A stretch of 64,000 nucleotides of DNA, taken from Fibrobacterales bacterium. Lineage in GTDB: Bacteria > Fibrobacterota > Fibrobacteria > Fibrobacterales > JAOPTW01. The first letter of the stretch is position 1, and each line of letters opens with the position of its first letter. The stretch lies in assembly GCA_051532035.1 (NCBI GenBank), contig JAOPTW010000011.1:62043-126042 (forward strand), read 5' to 3'. Below are positions 11,531 to 64,000 of this stretch, one piece after another. The position numbers were made by a program, and so were the translations under genes. The notes below the pieces were generated by a model. The model saw nothing but the letters and a program-made list of their open reading frames with translations. It ran no database searches and was not told the origin of the DNA.

Positions 11531-11553
11531 CTAGTACCGTCTATATACTCCAC

Positions 11554-53090: not shown

Positions 53091-53382
53091 AACCTCTCCT
53101 TCCCATCCTTACCTTCAACTCCCTGCGCCTTCAACCTCTTCTTCTTTAAATACTGCAGCCTCGCATACGGGCTATTAAACTCCTTGCGTACTTCGGGGGA
53201 GTCTTGAAAGGCTCCATCTATCCAGTTTCTAATCTCAACTTCAGATTGTCTGAGGAGTGAAATACACTGGTCGCGGATGGTTTTGTAATCAGTTGCTTGG
53301 AACCTCTCTGCATGGGCGAGGACTTTGAGTTCACGGAGTTCTGTTACGAGGGCGTCAGCTTCATCCCAGAGGTGAGTATCAA
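53091..53382 (-). pseudogene. 5'-truncated copy (about the C-terminal 95 codons) of the 272-275-aa multi-copy family; normal stop lost
   Basis: The minus-strand translation ..DTHLWDEADALVTELRELKVLAHAERFQATDYKTIRDQCISLLRQSEVEIRNWIDGAFQDSPEVRKEFNSPYARLQYLKKKRLKAQGVEGKDGK.. is collinear with 54658..55485. Homology stops at gtatcaa|tacctaatgt, exactly where R1 copy c begins. Confidence 0.8.
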
Positions 53383-54657: not shown

Positions 54658-55485
54658 CTAAGCCAACCTCTCCTTCCCATCCTTACCCTCAACACCCTGT
54701 GCCTTCAACCGTTTCTTTTTCAAATACTGCTGCCTTGCATACTGGCTATTAAACTCCTTGCGTACTTCGGGGGAGTCTTGAAAGGCTACATCTATCCAGT
54801 TTCTAATCTTAACTTCAGTTGCTCTGAGGAGTGAAATACACTGGTCGCGGATGGTTTTGAAATCAGTTGCTTGGAACCTCTCTGCATGGGCGAGGACTTT
54901 GAGTTCACGGAGTTCTGTTGCGAGGACGTCAGCTTCATCCCAGAGGTGCGTATCAAAAATGACGGGGGAGTTGTCGAGGGGGAGTGCTCTGCCGAGTAAG
55001 GCGAGTTCTACGATATCTTTCAGCACACCGTCCATAGCTTTTGATTTATTAAAAGAGATGATCCGTTTAATATGGCGTGGTTCTTTCATGCACACCAGTT
55101 TTAATATTTTAACCATCTTAGAACGCAGCTCCTTGGCTTCAGGGGCGCGCTGTGTCCAGAGGTCGCGGTCGGTGGTTTCGGTACGTAACTTTTGCTTAAA
55201 GAGTATGTCGGCATGCTGTGCGGCCCGAGACTGCATGATTGCTTTATGCGCGGTCTCTTTGCTAAACCCAAAGGTCTTGAGTGCTTTTAAGTGATTGAGT
55301 GCAGTCTTACCCAGTTCCTCTACTTCAAAGAGGTACGTATCGATACGCATTGAGGGAATGTGGAGTGCATTGGTCGGTTGCGCAGTGATCTCGTCGATAA
55401 TAAGGTCATAACACGCCTCAGGTTGGTCGGGAACCTCAGAGCTGGGCCTGGTATAGGGGCTTTTGCTATCGTTTTTGCTACTCAT
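54658..55485 (-). CDS. Uncharacterised 275-aa helical cytoplasmic protein, multi-copy family, full copy 1
   Basis: GAGGGAG RBS 5 nt upstream of the ATG. aa 1-157 differ at one residue from copy 2 (58202..59020). A central block is divergent and the C-terminal block is conserved. I recognise no catalytic or DNA-binding motif. Confidence 0.8.
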   Translation of the reverse strand: MSSKNDSKSPYTRPSSEVPDQPEACYDLIIDEITAQPTNALHIPSMRIDTYLFEVEELGKTALNHLKALKTFGFSKETAHKAIMQSRAAQHADILFKQKLRTETTDRDLWTQRAPEAKELRSKMVKILKLVCMKEPRHIKRIISFNKSKAMDGVLKDIVELALLGRALPLDNSPVIFDTHLWDEADVLATELRELKVLAHAERFQATDFKTIRDQCISLLRATEVKIRNWIDVAFQDSPEVRKEFNSQYARQQYLKKKRLKAQGVEGKDGKERLA

Positions 55486-55684
55486 GGTGTCTCCCTCGGG
55501 TTAATTCCTACCCATATGTTACTCAATGCTATCCATATTTGGTTGATTCAATATGTCCTTTCGGGAGTGTTCAAAATTCTGTGTAACTAGCGATAATACG
55601 TTGCAGTAAATTAAAACATAATTTTTGTCACAATTTCCCCATTGGATTCGTCTAATATGGTCAGATAATAAGTTTGAATTTTAA

Positions 55685-57913: not shown

Positions 57914-57962
57914 TACGCAGCATTTTTTCTATTCACTGAAGTGGAAAAATGCTGCGTACATT
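57914..57962 (+). terminator. Strong rho-independent terminator
   Basis: 14-bp stem tacgcagcattttt / aaaaatgctgcgta, followed by cattttg. Confidence 0.8.
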
Positions 57963-58201: not shown

Positions 58202-59020
58202 CTAAGCCAACCTCTCCTTCCCATCAACACCCACCGTCTTCAACCGTTTCTTTTTCAAATACTGCTGTCTCGCATACGGGCTATTAAACTCCTTGCGTAC
58301 TTCTGGGGAGTCTTGAAAGGCTACATCTATCCAATTTCTAATCTCGACTTCAGTTGCTCTGAGGAGTGAAATACACTGGTCGCGGATGGTTTTGTAATTC
58401 GTTGCACGGGACCGCTCTACTATAGCGAGCTTTTTGAGATCACGGAGTTCCGTTATGAGGGCGTCTGCTTCATCCCAGATGTGAGTATCAAAAATGACGG
58501 GGGAGTCTTCGAGGGGGAGTGCCCTGCCGAATAGAGCAAGGTCGGTGAGGTCTTTTAACACACCGTCCATCGCTTTTGATTTATTAAAAGAGATGATCCT
58601 TTTAATATGGCGTGGTTCTTTCATGCACACCAGTTTTAAAATTTTAACCATCTTAGAACGCAGTTCTTTTGCTTCAGGGGCGCGCTGTGTCCAGAGGTCA
58701 CGGTCGGTGGTTTCGGTGCGTAACTTTTGCTTAAAGAGTATGTCGGCGTGCTGTGCGGCCCGAGACTGCATGATTGCTTTATGCGCGGTCTCTTTGCTAA
58801 ACCCAAATGTCTTGAGTGCTTTTAAGTGATTGAGTGCAGTCTTACCCAGTTCTTCTACTTCAAAGAGGTACGTATCGATACGCATAGAGGGAATGTGGAG
58901 TGCATTGGTCGGTTGCGCAGTAATCTCGTCGATAATAAGGTCATAACACGCCTCAGGTTGGTCGGGAACCTTAGAGCTGGGCCTGGTATAGGGGCTTTTG
59001 CTATCGTTCTTGCTACTCAT
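58202..59020 (-). CDS. Uncharacterised 272-aa helical cytoplasmic protein, multi-copy family, full copy 2
   Basis: Same RBS and 5' region as copy 1. Mosaic identity pattern relative to copy 1. Lies immediately downstream of the left 21-bp repeat array. Confidence 0.8.
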   Translation of the reverse strand: MSSKNDSKSPYTRPSSKVPDQPEACYDLIIDEITAQPTNALHIPSMRIDTYLFEVEELGKTALNHLKALKTFGFSKETAHKAIMQSRAAQHADILFKQKLRTETTDRDLWTQRAPEAKELRSKMVKILKLVCMKEPRHIKRIISFNKSKAMDGVLKDLTDLALFGRALPLEDSPVIFDTHIWDEADALITELRDLKKLAIVERSRATNYKTIRDQCISLLRATEVEIRNWIDVAFQDSPEVRKEFNSPYARQQYLKKKRLKTVGVDGKERLA

Positions 59021-59029
59021 GGTGTCTCC

Positions 59030-59262
59030 CTCGGGTTAATTCCTATCCATATGCAACGGTTTGCTATAGATATTGGGTGGTTTGCTGTCCATATGTATGC
59101 TGATGCTATCCATATTGGGCAATTTCCTATCCATATGTTGTCGAATGCTATTGGTATGTGCAGGTTTGCTCTACCTATGCAAGCGGATGCTCTCCATATG
59201 TTGTAATTTCCTATCCATAGGTCACTCGATGCTATCCATATTGGGTTGATTCAGTATATCCT
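59030..59262 (-). repeat. Left array: ~11 tandem degenerate 21-bp units (consensus on + strand nnTGCTATCCATATGnnnnnn)
   Basis: The core CCATAT or a one-mismatch variant starts at 59047, 59068, 59089, 59110, 59131, 59152, 59173, 59194, 59215, 59236 and ~59257, an exact 21-bp phase. The copy-1 locus (55505-55560) has only 2-3 units. Confidence 0.9.
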
Positions 59263-59547
59263 TTCTTACCAGTATTGAGTAATTAAATATCTGTTTTTAC
59301 TAAAGATTTATGGATATTCAATGATTGTAAGTCATGCTATCTTAGCTATATCCAAATCTTTATTAAACTATTACCTGTATTCTATAATTCATTGCCAATA
59401 CTCAAAGGTATCAAATATTAAGTATTACTGTCTTATGATTCATATATCATGGTTTAATATAGAGCAACACTATTTAGAATTTTTCTGAGCTAGGCATTTA
59501 GATACTCAGTCCTTACAGTCAACTCATTATCCCTAGGAAAGCTTTAC
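59263..59547. other. AT-rich ORF-free spacer between the two inverted 21-bp arrays
   Basis: About 285 bp, visibly AT-rich, with no ORF of 60 aa or more on either strand. Confidence 0.7.
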
Positions 59548-59885
59548 TCAGATCTGTGACTCCATATGGCAGTAATTCAGGTCGAGTGTGTAGTAAAGCG
59601 TACGCAGATGGTAGGTAATTCGTGAGATATGGGTAGTATTTACTCAGATATTGGTTGTAATTGCCTCAATATGGACGGTATTCTATGAAATATGAGGGTA
59701 AATGAGCACAATAGGGTAGGGATTATACCGGAGATCGTATTGCGGAGACTGTATATGGTATGTAATGACCTGAATAGGGCATGCATTCTATTGAGTATGG
59801 GTGTAAATGAGGTCATTAGCGTCGTAATTGAACTGAATATCGGAGTAAATCACCCAGATTGACACTCAAATGTGTAGAATCTAGG
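59548..59885 (+). repeat. Right array: ~14-16 tandem degenerate 21-bp units in inverted orientation (consensus GTAAWTnnnnnnn(G)AATATGG)
   Basis: The core ATATGG or a variant starts at 59564 (inside the palindrome CCATATGG), 59585, 59606, 59627, 59648, 59669, 59690, 59711, 59732, 59753, 59774, 59795, 59816, 59837, 59858 and 59879, an exact 21-bp phase. AATATGGAyrGyA is the reverse complement of the left-array core. Confidence 0.9.
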
Positions 59886-59934
59886 GGTGGTTTGGAGCAG
59901 GGTGGTGTGTATGGGTGCGTATTAACGGTTCGAG

Positions 59935-60075
59935 GGGGAGTGGATGTTGTCTCTTGTGAATGATGTTGGTTTTTCCGTTGTAATTTGAGGGGGAATTTTT
60001 AGGTTTATGGTGTAAATTTACCTGCTGAGTGATAAGGGTTGTATTGGCTTGCGCATAATTACAACTGAAGTACAC
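59935..60075 (+). repeat. Repeat A, copy 1 (upstream leader shared with 62262-62400)
   Basis: Shared blocks: tctcttgtga.tgat, ttggttt...cgttgtaatt.a..gg.ga, ttacctgctg.gt.at.ag. Confidence 0.7.
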
Positions 60076-60092: not shown

Positions 60093-60503
60093 ATGATGCA
60101 CTTAATATTGACTACTGCTCTAGGATTAATCTGCATATTGACGGGATTAATTAGCTTGAGAAAATACGATAGATTGAATAAAACATCATTCAAGTTTGGC
60201 GTTGCATATATTGTATTTACAGCTATTTTTAATTTCACAATTATATGGCTAGATTCTCAAGGACCCGACAATGGTATAATCATTTCCATGATGGTTTATA
60301 GTATAATAAATTTTCCATTCTCAATAATTGCCTATGCTAATTCGCCCTTAATATGGATGATTTTAATTTACTCTGGTTTAATTGGGACTATCGAATTTGT
60401 CTTGATAGGAAAATTAATAAATAACTTCACTTCAAGAAATGATGATGACGGAAACAGCAAGATAACATCTATATGTCCCCCCAAGTCAAGTGGAAAGCAT
60501 TGA
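60093..60503 (+). CDS. Small membrane protein (cassette gene 1)
   Basis: 136 aa with 4 hydrophobic helices. The last ~13 codons and the stop lie inside conserved module CR1. Confidence 0.6.
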   Translation: MMHLILTTALGLICILTGLISLRKYDRLNKTSFKFGVAYIVFTAIFNFTIIWLDSQGPDNGIIISMMVYSIINFPFSIIAYANSPLIWMILIYSGLIGTIEFVLIGKLINNFTSRNDDDGNSKITSICPPKSSGKH

Positions 60504-60768
60504 TTCCCCTCAAATAGTTTTACTTGACTTCTCACTCCTGAATCTCTTATACGACTCTATGGAAGAGTGAAATGACTTACCAGCGGATATAAGTCATATA
60601 CTCAATAATGTGTATTGTAAGGGAGGCGCTGTAATGCCTCTCTATGGTAGTATCTTTTGAGAATGGCGATAGTTTAATCAGAATGAGCAATCAGAGCTAG
60701 GGAAGGGTACAGCTTCAGTGGGAATTAGCTAGATTATTTGTTATAAATCAACTCTCTGTACAATAAGA
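60464..60768 (+). repeat. Conserved inter-cassette module CR, copy 1 (~305 bp)
   Basis: Left core AACATCTATATGTCCCCCC. IR aagtcaagt(31 nt)acttgactt at 60483-60530. Hairpin atgactta/taagtcat. Hairpin gggaggc..gcctc at 60621-60642. Block 60667-60737 is identical in CR3 and CR4. Right end ctgtaNrATAAGA. Confidence 0.9.
60738..60764 (+). promoter_or_regulatory. Sigma-70-like promoter candidate at the right end of CR1 (TTGTTA-15 nt-TACAAT), facing gene 60783
   Basis: The equivalent positions are TTGTTA-15-TAGAAT in CR3 (63020-63046) and GTGTTA-15-TATGAT in CR4 (63764-63790). All three -10 boxes keep TAnnAT despite substitutions. The spacer is short at 15 nt. Confidence 0.3.
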
Positions 60769-60782
60769 TTTAACTGCGACCT

Positions 60783-61166
60783 ATGATTAAATATTTACTC
60801 ACTTTGCTTTTGACTTGCTCAATTTTTAGCTGTGTCTCCACAGATTCTGAATCCTCTTGTTCTGTGGGAACGCCACTTACGCCTCAATTACAAATAAATA
60901 ACAACATTGACTTACGCCTTTCGGTTATATACGAAAAAATTATGTCCTTCCCAGTGCACTCACTAGATTCTCTAGTTACACTCAGTAGCTTGCCTAGAGA
61001 AGACTCTTTCAAAATATATTTGATTAACCTGTCATCAGAAACCACATCTAAAGATTCAGTCTCTTTTTCAACAATGAGTCATAACAGCTATTATCTAAAT
61101 ATTGATGAAGGGCCGAATAATTCGCTAGAATTTGACATTACCTATAAAGACAAATATTGCGAATAA
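60783..61166 (+). CDS. Small lipoprotein (cassette gene 2)
   Basis: Lipobox LLTCSIFSCVS. 127 aa. Followed at 61190-61208 by a vestigial CR left core (aacatctatagctcccccc). Confidence 0.6.
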   Translation: MIKYLLTLLLTCSIFSCVSTDSESSCSVGTPLTPQLQINNNIDLRLSVIYEKIMSFPVHSLDSLVTLSSLPREDSFKIYLINLSSETTSKDSVSFSTMSHNSYYLNIDEGPNNSLEFDITYKDKYCE

Positions 61167-61549
61167 CTTATTTGCAAAGTGTAGCAGTTAACATCTATAG
61201 CTCCCCCCGTTTATAATCGAGGGGGTTATACAGGTGATTTAAATTTCTTTAGTGCCCCAGTTTAATAATGAGAGTGCTCTATTGTAGATGTATGTTGTGG
61301 GGTACTCTTACCCCATTATTGAGATGTTTAGAGGTAGGGGAGTTTAAAAAAAATGTTCTTATACATCTTATTCAAAAATCATGTAACCTTTTCCAATAAT
61401 AGCGGCGTCAAATCCTTAGAGACAAAAAAAGAATATTTTGCATCTTGGTATTTACTATGAACTTTTACGCGGCTGAGACAAATCCTGACTTAGATTTGGA
61501 TTATTCTACAGCCTCGTATCCCCTCTAGACTAATTCATCATGAGGAAAC

Positions 61550-62062
61550 ATGAAATCCTTCGCAATTATAATCATCCTTCTTTGTTCGAGTCTGTATTCT
61601 AAATCGACCTATCATATGTTTGCTGTTCGCCCCCTAACTATAGGCGATCCTGATGCTAGCCATTTGCTTCCCACTAGAATTGTCTCGTATTATTGTCAGT
61701 ATAAATCACTGGTCTTTGCAATTGAGCCAATCTACATCTTTGATGGGGAATTTGGAAATGCAGGATACGGAGGCTCAACATCAATCATGTTTTTTGAAAA
61801 CGACAGAACTATATTTGCTCCAGGAGCAACTGTCTCTATTCTTAATCCCACTAATGGAAGTATTACACCGGAAATATTTTTTAGACTTCAATTGTTGAAT
61901 TCAAGGAACAAATGGTACTTGTTTGGCATGGAGGCATTGTTAGGGTATGGTCTAAAAAGAATGAATACAACCGCACTTATTCATGATACCGAAGCACAAA
62001 CATCAAGTGGCTTTACGTTTAGATTAGGCTTCGAAATTGGCTTTAAGTACAAACATAGATAA
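61550..62062 (+). CDS. Small secreted beta-barrel-like protein (cassette gene 3)
   Basis: Signal peptide. Alternating strands. Followed 32 nt later by the partial module CR2. Confidence 0.6.
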   Translation: MKSFAIIIILLCSSLYSKSTYHMFAVRPLTIGDPDASHLLPTRIVSYYCQYKSLVFAIEPIYIFDGEFGNAGYGGSTSIMFFENDRTIFAPGATVSILNPTNGSITPEIFFRLQLLNSRNKWYLFGMEALLGYGLKRMNTTALIHDTEAQTSSGFTFRLGFEIGFKYKHR

Positions 62063-62093
62063 AAGAAGAACAAAAATTAACTACAGAGGTGAT

Positions 62094-62176
62094 ACCATCT
62101 ATTTGCCCCCCAAGTCACGTAAAGAATCTTGATTCACCTCAAATTGTTTTACTTGGCTTCTCACTCCTGAATCTCA
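62094..62176 (+). repeat. CR copy 2 (left ~85 bp only), joined to repeat A copy 2
   Basis: accatctatttgccccccaagtcacgtaaagaatcttgattcacctcaaattgttttacttggcttctcactcctgaatctc, after which homology to CR1 ends. Confidence 0.85.
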
Positions 62177-62261
62177 CACTGCTCCCTGCATCGGTAACCT
62201 ATTCTCATATGGCTCTGCTTTCTGTATCAATTGAATGGGCGGTCCGGCATCTTACTGAGGA

Positions 62262-62400
62262 TGGGGAGTTGGGTGGTTTCTCTTGTGATTGATTGTGTAT
62301 TTGTAAGTGAATAGGGGGTGATATTTGGTTTGACGTTGTAATTGAATGGAGGATTAGTAGATTTATTGCATAGACTTACCTGCTGTGTAATCAGAGATAT
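62262..62400 (+). repeat. Repeat A, copy 2
   Basis: See 59935-60075. It lies directly upstream of gene 62406. Confidence 0.7.
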
Positions 62401-62405
62401 TTGGA

Positions 62406-62723
62406 ATGCTTCGACGACCAAAAGAAACTCAATTAGAAAAAGCCGACTTGTTTCCTGTAATAAGGTTTAATTACTTTCCTCTAGTTTTTGCATCAATATT
62501 ACTGCCAATTTTAAGTTTGGGATTTATCAACGTTAGTTATGGTAATAGAAGTAACCTTGATTTAAAGGTATACAGAAAAGTCGTTCGTCAAAAGTATGAA
62601 GTAGAAGAAAGAGGTTTTTACTATTTTAAAGACGGAAAACTAATTCTGCGCCCATTCTTTGGAACAATTGTAGGTGTATTTCTTTTCATAGCTTCGTTTG
62701 GTGTTATGACTTCGATACTATAA
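62406..62723 (+). CDS. Small membrane protein (cassette gene 4)
   Basis: 105 aa with two hydrophobic helices. Unrelated to the other cassette ORFs. Confidence 0.55.
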   Translation: MLRRPKETQLEKADLFPVIRFNYFPLVFASILLPILSLGFINVSYGNRSNLDLKVYRKVVRQKYEVEERGFYYFKDGKLILRPFFGTIVGVFLFIASFGVMTSIL

Positions 62724-62747
62724 GTATTTAGCGCCTAATCGACATAT

Positions 62748-63050
62748 ACCATCTATATACCCCCCCAAGCCAAGTAAAGAATCTTGATTCCCCTCAATTG
62801 TATTACTTGACTTCTCACTGCTGAATCTCTTATATGACTCTATAGTGGAGTGAAATGACTTAACAGCGGATACGCGTCATATACTCAATAATGTGTATTA
62901 TAAGGTGGTGCTATAATACCTCTCTATGGTAGTATCTTTTGAGAATGACGATAGTTTAATCAGAATGAGCAATCAGAGCTAGGGAAGGGTACAGCTTCAG
63001 TGGGAATTAGCTAGATTATTTGTTAGAAATCAACCCTCTGTAGAATAAGA
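62748..63050 (+). repeat. CR copy 3 (full length)
   Basis: Collinear with CR1. The hairpin at 62902-62924 carries a compensatory C-G to T-A change. Confidence 0.9.
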
Positions 63051-63165
63051 GCTAGCCTGCATCTACACCTAATTAATCATTAATTATAAAAAGTTTGAAC
63101 TTTCATTCACATTTTAATATTACCCATCGTCTAAAGATGTATAACATTCAAAAATCAGGAAAAAT

Positions 63166-63504
63166 ATGAAATTATTTACTAAAACAATCATAGGCTTAAC
63201 CTTAATTTGTGCTGTTTTCACTTCAAATACTTATGCAGGAAACACAAGTGGGCAAAAAGTATCAATTAACGAAATCAATTTTAATTCCGGAAGCATTTAT
63301 TTCCAATTAAGCTCTGAAATGTTTGATTGTAAAAATGGTACACACTTAAAACTTAATGAAAATTCAAATAAAGATTTATATGCAGCATTATTAAATACAT
63401 ATGCAACGAATGGAAAACTTATAATTGAATGGGTACATTGCTATGATGGAAGTGTCGGAGACCTAAATTCAGGAACTGGTGTAAAAATTCGATTCAGCAA
63501 GTAA
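63166..63504 (+). CDS. Small secreted protein (cassette gene 5)
   Basis: Signal peptide MKLFTKTIIGLTLICAVFTSNTYA. RBS AGGAAA. 112 aa. Confidence 0.65.
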   Translation: MKLFTKTIIGLTLICAVFTSNTYAGNTSGQKVSINEINFNSGSIYFQLSSEMFDCKNGTHLKLNENSNKDLYAALLNTYATNGKLIIEWVHCYDGSVGDLNSGTGVKIRFSK

Positions 63505-63530
63505 ACCTTGCACCTTACAACAGCAGGCTT

Positions 63531-63794
63531 ACGTCTATATGCCCTCCAAGTCAAGTAAAAAATATTGATTCATCTCAACTGTTTTACCTGACTTCTCACT
63601 TATGAATCTCTTATACGAGTCATATACTCAATAATGTGTATTGTAAGGGAGGCGCTATAGTGCCTCCCTTAGGTGTTATCTTTTGAGAATGGTGATAGTT
63701 TAATCAGAATGAGCAATCAGAGCTAGGGAAGGGTACAGCTTCAGTGGGAATTAGCTAGATTATGTGTTAGAAATCAACCGTCTGTATGATAAGA
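63531..63794 (+). repeat. CR copy 4 (full length apart from a 38-nt internal deletion)
   Basis: Collinear with CR1. It lacks ctctatgg...gatataa, the left arm of the second hairpin. Hairpin gggaggc/gcctccc at 63647-63668 is perfect. Confidence 0.9.
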
Positions 63795-63846
63795 GTTATA
63801 TGGCTTTTGATTACATATTATTTCTGCTCACCAAATAGGATTTGTA

Positions 63847-64000
63847 ATGTCTCCCACTAATAAACTTGGCACACCAAAAGATTTAGATAGTATCACATTA
63901 AACGATGTGCTTGAAAATAAGGTTTGGGTTTGGACCTGGGAAGTAAACCTTGACGAAGAATATGATGAATCCTGGCAGTTGCCTATAATTGGACTTGATG
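63847..64000 (+). CDS. Hypothetical protein, N-terminal 51 codons only (cassette gene 6, runs off the window)
   Basis: Not in the track. ATG 63847 followed by an open frame to the window end (MSPTNKLGTPKDLDSITLNDVLENKVWVWTWEVNLDEEYDESWQLPIIGLD). No signal peptide. Confidence 0.45.
   Translation, partial: MSPTNKLGTPKDLDSITLNDVLENKVWVWTWEVNLDEEYDESWQLPIIGLD

Follow-up and report, generated by a model that had tools for sequence, protein, structure and literature searches.

The array and its boundary modules

The sequence considered here is a window of 64 kb (the whole stretch of DNA that was analysed) on contig JAOPTW010000011.1, from the metagenome-assembled genome (MAG) of an uncultured Fibrobacterales bacterium. 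Its last 4 kb are filled by an array of six small ORFan genes separated by repeated non-coding modules, and the element in question is a block of about 70 nt that is invariant in three of these modules. The original prediction, made from the sequence alone, had proposed that the module may insulate neighbouring genes by ending one transcript and starting the next, and that the block within it is either a protein-binding or recombination site or the 5' part of a small RNA.

None of the six open reading frames (ORFs) belongs to a Pfam or NCBIfam family. Between them lie five modules, spaced 654-904 nt apart and each initiated by a motif termed D7, which starts 20-28 nt past the stop codon of the preceding ORF. 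The exception is the first cassette ORF (60093-60503), which runs through D7 into the hairpin H1, its last ~14 codons (..SKITSICPPKSSGKH) being repeat-encoded. The annotation of the Prokaryotic Genome Annotation Pipeline (PGAP) covers three of the five complete array ORFs. The arrangement of tandem, short, co-oriented and unrelated ORFs, each with its repeat, is that of an integron cassette array.

The modules are local. D7 has five array copies and one match with three mismatches, at position 11535, against 0.15 expected; this match apart, all module elements cluster between 59.9 and 64 kb. Within the 64 kb, this is not the distribution of dispersed repeats such as repetitive extragenic palindromes and bacterial interspersed mosaic elements (REP/BIME) or miniature inverted-repeat transposable elements (MITE). 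A further contig of the MAG (P0011) carries at least one more copy of the repeat.

Three of the modules, CR1 (60460-60768), CR3 and CR4, are of one kind, type A, with the order D7, H1, CTTCTCACTCCTGAATCTC, H2 (missing from CR4), H3 and a junction-proximal arm. CR2 is of a second kind, type B, with an arm related to B0, the arm that heads the array, and CRx is a short module. From D7 to the junction with the next cassette, CR1 and CR3 measure 296 nt, CR4 258 nt, CR2 about 290 nt and CRx ~115 nt. The left part is shared beyond type A: in nhmmer searches the left core matched the loci L001 and L002 as well as CR2, with E-values of 1e-16 to 1e-23. The features are collected in Table 1.

Table 1. 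Features of the array and its surroundings, in window coordinates
Feature	Position	Strand	Remarks
Array of six small, unrelated, same-strand ORFan genes	60093..64000	+	no Pfam or NCBIfam families
Array ORFs	60093-60503, 60783-61166, 61550-62062, 62406-62723, 63166-63504, 63848->	+	
D7 motif AGATAACATCTATATGTCCCCCC	60460..60482	+	23 nt; left boundary of each inter-gene module
Further D7 copies	61186, 62090, 62744, 63526	+	family of five array copies
Left core (D7, H1 and CTTCTCACTCCTGAATCTC)	60463..60546	+	common to type A, type B and a second Fibrobacterales MAG
H1	60484-60530	+	imperfect hairpin of ~47 nt
H2 hairpin, ATGACTTA..TAAGTCAT	60572..60598	+	inside the 38-nt segment 60555-60592, deleted in copy 4
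H3, extended hairpin	60601..60662	+	inner stem 60621-60642; most variable part of the right half; terminator-like
Conserved junction-proximal arm (~102 nt)	60651..60752		contains the block; copies at 62933-63034 and 63677-63778
Invariant block	60667..60737		copies at 62949-63019 and 63693-63763; unstructured; stops in six frames
TTGAGA-16 nt-CAGAAT	60657..60684	+	also at 62939-62966 and 63683-63710; overlaps the T-tract and the block start
TTGTTA-15 nt-TACAAT	60738..60764	+	-35 at 60738-43, -10 at 60759-64; straddles the cassette boundary
Junction	60753..60768		variable dinucleotide 60753-54, then the conserved 16-nt cassette 5' end TCTGTAnnATAAGA
Equivalent junction sites	60023-60037, 62381-62395, 63035-63050, 63779-63794		
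Type B module CR2	62090..62395	+	left core, ~45 nt specific to type B, arm related to B0
Type B0 arm	59931..60022		array head; left core absent there
Short module CRx	61186..61300	+	D7, a CCCCCC/GGGGG hairpin and TAGATGTATGTTG, the inverted partner of D7
Gene of the 272-aa protein	58202-59020	-	in the intI position; divergent from the array
272/275-aa paralogues	58202-59020, 54658-55485; 3' remnant 53091-53382	-	strand given for the two full copies
Iteron-like repeats	59035-59265, 55500-55562, 59622-59680		

Conservation of the block

The block had been described as 71 nt identical in CR1, CR3 and CR4. This is correct for the 70 nt from 60668 to 60737; the 71-mer has no mismatch in the first two copies and one in the third, where its first base is changed from C to T (63693). 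In the three-way alignment of the type A modules (260 aligned columns, 36 of them variable), invariant runs are found at 60593-60616, 60651-60665 and 60668-60737, and a permutation test gives p=1.8e-4 for the 70-nt run. The block is part of a longer conserved arm, with four variable columns in three copies over 60651-60752. Pairwise identity is 82-84% in the left core, 70-85% in the hairpin region and 97-98% in the arm, and substitutions flank the block on both sides, at 60666-67 and at 60738 and 60744.

The three block copies lie next to mutually unrelated genes, which rules out a segmental duplication as the source of the identity. A recent duplication would have carried equally identical flanking cassettes with it, and on this point the original prediction was right. 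It was also right that no ORF crosses the block: every one of the six frames contains a stop codon inside it, and the stop-free stretches that overlap it reach at most 37 codons.

Short direct repeats occur in the block between 60676 and 60731: AATCAGA, GGGAA and AGCTAG are each present in two copies, separated by 13, 21 and 32 nt, respectively. The B0 arm has direct repeats of its own, with two copies each of GAGGGGGA and GATGTTG.

The position of the cassette boundary

The clearest information on where one cassette ends comes from a syntenic 20-kb locus, L004, in the sister assembly GCA_047518385.1. Window positions 58224-60050, which hold the 272-aa protein gene with the repeats upstream of it and the B0 arm, align to L004 with 90% identity, and positions 63777-64000, the cassette after copy 4, align with 96% identity. 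In L004 these two alignments abut, and five genes, along with their modules, are absent. The junction is chimeric: the B0 arm runs to ..TTTACC, followed by A and then by TCTGTGTGATAAGAGTTATATGG... Left of it, ..GGTGTAAATTTACC is identical to B0; right of the single A, TCTGTGTGATAAGAGTTATATGGCTTTTGATTAC.. matches the sequence after copy 4.

The cassette boundary can thus be placed at ..A(A/C)C, followed by 1-2 variable nt and (T)CTG.. (60753-60757 in copy 1). All five window junctions, and that of L004, share CTG(T/A)nn(A/G)AT(A/C)AG(A/G) at the cassette start. The two genomes therefore differ by the presence or absence of five cassettes, with a breakpoint at the 3' edge of the site, as cassette units do, although this is one event only. 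Among the functions that had been proposed for the block, a protein-binding or recombination site fits best, since the breakpoint of this five-gene difference lies directly 3' of the arm.

In the window, the gene after copy 4 is preceded by a type A arm, in L004 by a type B arm; the block is therefore not the leader of that gene. The B0 arm is identical at 90 of 92 positions between the two genomes, compared with 565 of 655 (~86%, plus a 10-nt indel) in the ~660 nt upstream of it. Consistent alignment of type A and type B arms is confined to the ~55 nt nearest the junction. Homology over their full length was considered and rejected, as neither nhmmer nor pairwise alignment gave significance (p~0.07 each).

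Signals for transcription

The hairpin H3 lies immediately upstream of the block. Its inner stem reads gggaggc-n8-gcctctc in CR1, the same with gcctccc in CR4, and aggt-n11-acct in CR3, with a C-G pair replaced by T-A. The hairpin and this double change are as originally described; the further claim, that the structure is under selection, does not follow. In CR3, one pair is changed on both sides, three pairs are broken and 1 nt is deleted. The compensatory pair is the only one in the three copies, and an equal result is reached by 163 of 500 shuffles; the three sequences therefore do not demonstrate structural selection.

On the + strand, H3 has folding z-scores of -3.6 in CR1, a weak -1.6 in CR3 and -5.4 in CR4. 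The energies are -20.7, -14 and -27.4 kcal/mol on the + strand compared with -11.6, -7.1 and -20.3 kcal/mol on the - strand, where the hairpin is much weaker because four G.U pairs favour the + strand RNA. The T-rich tract that had been noted behind the hairpin, tatctttt, is present at 60651-60658, but it begins 8 nt past the simple stem rather than directly after it; if the stem is extended through its G.U pairs, the tail GUAUCUUUU begins where the stem ends. In a terminator scan CR4 passes with a 12-bp stem, while CR1 and CR3 fail. From its sequence, H3 with its T-tract is a marginal candidate for a terminator.

Two promoter-like sites accompany the type A arms. The first, TTGTTA-15-TAnnAT, had been read as an outward-facing promoter end of the module. 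It is situated 19-85 nt 5' of the start codons, and its -10 variants (TACAAT, TAGAAT and TATGAT) all keep TAnnAT as stated; the -35 is not kept, being GTGTTA in copy 4 and missing from the type B modules. The cassette boundary falls between the two hexamers. The -35 is thus part of the module, whereas the -10 lies in the conserved 16 nt with which the next cassette begins, which means that the promoter could not be an end of the module alone. The second site, TTGAGA-16-CAGAAT, has hexamers that are invariant in three copies and a spacer with two variable columns (60666-60667). It scores 9/12 in each copy against a sigma-70-type consensus, the consensus for Fibrobacterales not being established. 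The region holds 22 promoter-like sites against 16.8 +/- 4.6 expected, which is no enrichment; sigma-70-type promoters have spacers of 16-18 nt, and the 15-nt spacer of the TTGTTA site falls outside the range of the scan. Sigma-54 motifs and the Bacteroidetes-type motifs TTTG / TAnnTTTG were checked by eye and discarded, their spacing being unsuitable.

Some further signals were seen near the array. The D7 of CRx overlaps the best sigma-70-like match of the region, TTAACA-18-TATAAT (11/12), at 61188-61217. A non-coding element of ~75 nt (61345-61425 in the window, 5940-6015 in L004) is 85% conserved across the two MAGs, where it lies 5' of unrelated ORFs, and it holds a promoter-like TTCAAA-18-AATAAT. 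A hairpin with a 22-bp stem, TACGCAGCATTTTTTCTATTCA / TGAAGTGGAAAAATGCTGCGTA, is found at 57914-57958, 3' of a 732-aa gene, and twice in the sister MAG (L004 3515-3562 and 2309-2357); it is probably a shared terminator-type repeat.

Taken from the sequence, an insulator made of a terminator and a promoter is plausible. It might also be the reason for the block itself: H3 and its U-tract would terminate the upstream message, promoter elements in or after the block would restart transcription, each cassette would be an independent unit, and the block would be kept as promoter, operator and leader. The good folding of H3 in CR1 and CR4, the U-rich tail and the terminator call in CR4 are in line with this, as are the presence of TTGAGA-16-CAGAAT in all three copies and the distance of TTGTTA-15-TAnnAT from the start codons. 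The presumed leader, 60688-60782, is unusually unstructured (z +2.2), as expected of an accessible 5' untranslated region (UTR). However, a sigma-70-type promoter constrains ~12 positions and not 70 contiguous ones, and the type B arms are equally conserved without comparable hexamers. The lack of enrichment of promoter-like matches, the failure of CR1 and CR3 in the terminator scan, the altered -35 of copy 4 and the absence of an established Fibrobacterales promoter consensus also count against it. As an account of the conserved block, the insulator is possible but rather unlikely.

Other copies and the origin of the identity

Few other copies of these sequences can be reached. A 22-mer of the block had no match in 185,579 representative genomes (the sister MAG included), in the JGI metagenomes or in IMG/VR, and blastn of the block against plasmids gave no match either. 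The right half of the type A model had no further nhmmer match in the window or in five other loci. A search for the repeat by translation returned one more copy in the same MAG and the known copy in the sister MAG only, and the left-core pattern occurred on two contigs of one sister MAG, tPB_Fibr1, and in none of the metagenomes or viral contigs.

The identity of the three copies could therefore reflect recent history rather than function. The arms may have been copied or homogenised lately, by gene conversion, by concerted evolution near a recombination-prone junction or by amplification, on top of older and diverged left parts. The mosaic build of the modules (a shared left core, alternative A and B middles and the 38-nt indel of copy 4) would agree with this, as would the lack of any match to the type A block outside the window, the sister MAG included, and the end of the identity tract near the breakpoint, where conversion tracts are expected. 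On the other hand, the identity is three-way and not pairwise, with substitutions flanking it on both sides. The unrelated B0 arm is, moreover, equally over-conserved between orthologues, where conversion by local paralogues is less obvious. An origin by homogenisation with no specific function is thus judged unlikely.

The least probable explanation, by far, is a small structured RNA or a cis-regulatory RNA (a riboswitch-like leader or an antisense RNA): the stretch is non-coding and highly conserved, and the promoter-like site upstream would set a start at about 60691, but the folding z-scores of block and arm range from -0.5 to +2.2 (six segments tested on two strands), less structured than shuffled sequence, and no RNA family is recognised. 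For 60688-60782 the z-score is +2.2 and for 60600-60782 it is -0.12. Covariation cannot be assessed in the block because it is invariant. No Rfam 15 family reaches its gathering threshold anywhere in the window, the array giving chance-level matches only at E<=10, and neither tRNA nor tmRNA was found. Since the block is unstructured and has no Rfam match, a structured small RNA or riboswitch is unlikely; the suggestion that the block is the 5' part of a small RNA finds no support in its own folding z-scores (+0.3 to +2.2). The block looks like a signal at the DNA level, neither coding nor a structured RNA.

A recombination-site arm as the preferred reading

We tentatively favour a recombination site at the cassette boundary, with the block as a section of its junction-proximal arm, kept as a platform for protein binding, possibly together with terminator and promoter punctuation. 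In favour of this are the anatomy of the array, the breakpoint seen in L004, the high conservation of both arm types right up to the junction, the similarity of A and B arms next to it and of all cassette starts, the absence of RNA structure and coding potential in the block, and the IS110-family element beside a type B left part in the sister MAG. Each unit of the array begins with the 16-nt cassette start TCTGTAnnATAAGA and a small ORFan gene; about 20 nt further on follow D7, H1, H2, H3 and an arm ending in ..AATCAAC. Joining, gain and loss of units would take place in the short interval that separates the arm from the start of the following cassette. The arm may be near-invariant as it would bind the proteins that recombine the junction, by analogy with the integrase-binding arms of attI and attC. 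H3 and the U-tract would end the upstream message, and TTGAGA-16-CAGAAT, TTGTTA-15-TAnnAT or both would restart transcription.

Several observations weigh against a recombination-site arm. The modules do not have the properties of classical attC sites, as set out below, and ~100 nt is long for a recombinase arm. A Pfam scan of 47 ORFs of the window detected no Phage_integrase (PF00589) or other recombinase domain. In the data that can be reached, the block has three copies only; given this and the absence of its 22-mer elsewhere, recent spread or gene conversion could explain the identity without constraint. The five-gene difference between the genomes could stem from ordinary homologous recombination between similar junction regions. 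Finally, both genomes are MAGs, and assembly could have influenced the order of the cassettes in an array so rich in repeats. The junction of L004, a chimera, is a unique sequence and no simple assembly collapse.

Neighbouring genes

The gene that is divergent from the array encodes a 272-aa protein and has a paralogue of 275 aa, the two full copies being 94% identical over 300 nt. All three, the remnant included, are divergent from ORFan genes on the + strand. The protein is a member of a family of ~250-aa uncharacterised proteins (180 clusters), without a match in Pfam, NCBIfam or the PDB. Its model is a predicted all-alpha bundle (predicted local distance difference test, pLDDT, 94.5) with no significant fold match in the PDB. 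A role of this neighbour as the recombinase was considered and set aside, as it has no support from family, PDB or fold. A homologue with 54% identity elsewhere has no such repeats nearby.

About ten direct repeats with a 21-nt period (core CTATCCATATG) lie directly 5' of the 272-aa gene, and two to three inverted copies follow ~400 nt on, an iteron-like arrangement. A resemblance between the iteron core and D7 (ATCTATATG; ATCYATATG) was dismissed, the pattern count not being above chance.

The type B left part is also found next to this gene family. It abuts the 3' end of degenerate copies of the 272-aa gene both in the sister MAG and on a further contig of the source MAG. On one tPB_Fibr1 contig, it comes after a Fib_succ_major gene and directly adjoins such a degenerate copy. 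On the other, L001 (JAOPTX010000119.1), a gene for an IS110-family transposase (PF01548 and PF02371) lies directly behind the type B left part (..CATATGGCTCTGC). The transposase gene is followed by ~315 nt of non-coding sequence, with a second D7-like motif, AAACATCTATAG, at the junction (L001 20-1165 and 1480-1620). The IS110 family often targets recombination sites and palindromic repeats.

A bolder interpretation would treat the locus as a cassette-capture system without an integron integrase, in which the invariant arms recruit a new recombination machinery. The 272-aa gene, the CTATCCATATG iterons with their inverted copies and B0 as an attI-like site would form its platform. Its boundary sites would be long, modular and largely double-stranded, with a core A(A/C)C-N-TCT(A/G)TA at both module ends, and the arms would at the same time equip every captured gene with its terminator and promoter. 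As a whole, this interpretation is distinctly unlikely.

Comparison with known systems

Integrons serve as the model of bacterial gene capture and are defined by IntI together with short hairpin attC sites. Integrons or comparable arrays in Fibrobacterales are not described in the literature that could be searched. Sedentary chromosomal integrons, for example that of Vibrio cholerae, and CALIN elements (clusters of attC sites lacking integrases) resemble the array in many respects. They share the tandem, co-oriented and mostly ORFan genes, the repeat ~20-28 nt past the stop codon, imperfect palindromes, and repeats that are far more alike within an array than the genes are. They also share presence or absence of cassettes between related genomes, the breakpoint falling on the 3' edge of the repeat. 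B0, a distinct site, heads the array in the position of attI. Cassette arrays without a nearby integrase, the CALIN elements, are well known (PMC4889954).

The modules themselves differ from attC sites. At ~250-300 nt, type A and type B modules exceed the attC range of about 57-141 nt, into which CRx alone falls. No single bulged hairpin is formed; as single-stranded DNA the whole module has folding z-scores of -0.78 (+) and -0.35 (-) and forms three separate local hairpins. A giant attC, with the whole module as one hairpin, was ruled out by this folding and by the test of the duplex between D7 and the right end. The boxes RYYYAAC and GTTRRRY are only partly recognisable: D7 carries (A/T)TAAC in four of seven copies, type A has GTTA(T/G)AA ~12 nt before the junction, and an inverted copy of D7 (TAGAT-N5-TGTTA) stands directly before the junction. 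Pairing of the ends is above chance in two of five modules, shuffles doing as well in 23 of 500 cases for CR1 and 30 of 500 for CRx, and not in CR2, CR3 or CR4. The conserved sequence reaches ~16 nt into the next cassette, not 6, and the best-conserved part is an unstructured arm of ~100 nt. Unlike in integrons, no IntI is encoded within 60 kb on the expected side, and the intI position is taken by the gene of the 272-aa protein with its predicted all-alpha fold. The array works like a set of cassettes, yet it cannot be classified as an integron. Mosaic boundaries of ~300 nt with an unstructured arm of ~100 nt would either widen the known forms of cassette recombination sites or point to a different mechanism of capture.

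Mosaic repeats of the REP/BIME, Correia and BOX kinds also combine hairpin modules with conserved unstructured segments, in 3' UTRs and intergenic regions, and can terminate, stabilise or promote transcription. They are also targeted by IS110-family elements. These repeats are dispersed over genomes, whereas the modules here form one 4-kb array with one copy per gene boundary (within the 64 kb), and no terminal inverted repeats or target-site duplications are evident.

In form, the published element that comes closest is the DUF1874 motif, which is conserved, has several stems and occurs in consecutive intergenic regions with ORFs between them; those who described it suspected an atypical attC site (Weinberg et al. 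2017, PMC5737381). At the 5' end of its array, no integrase was observed (PMC5737381). The alternation of repeat and ORF is common to both, as far as a comparison by description goes; the sequence and the host lineage are different, and no Rfam model has a match here.

A recombination site that also serves transcription has a precedent in attI with its Pc promoter, and promoter-bearing or ORF-less cassettes occur in chromosomal integron arrays (bioRxiv 10.1101/427781). The type A arm may be similar, as a recombination-site arm that also carries candidate promoter elements for the adjacent cassette. It differs in that the candidate promoter hexamers recur at every type A junction. If the arms do carry a terminator and a promoter, the expression of a captured gene would be independent of its position, and the limit that the distance from Pc sets in classical integrons would be removed.

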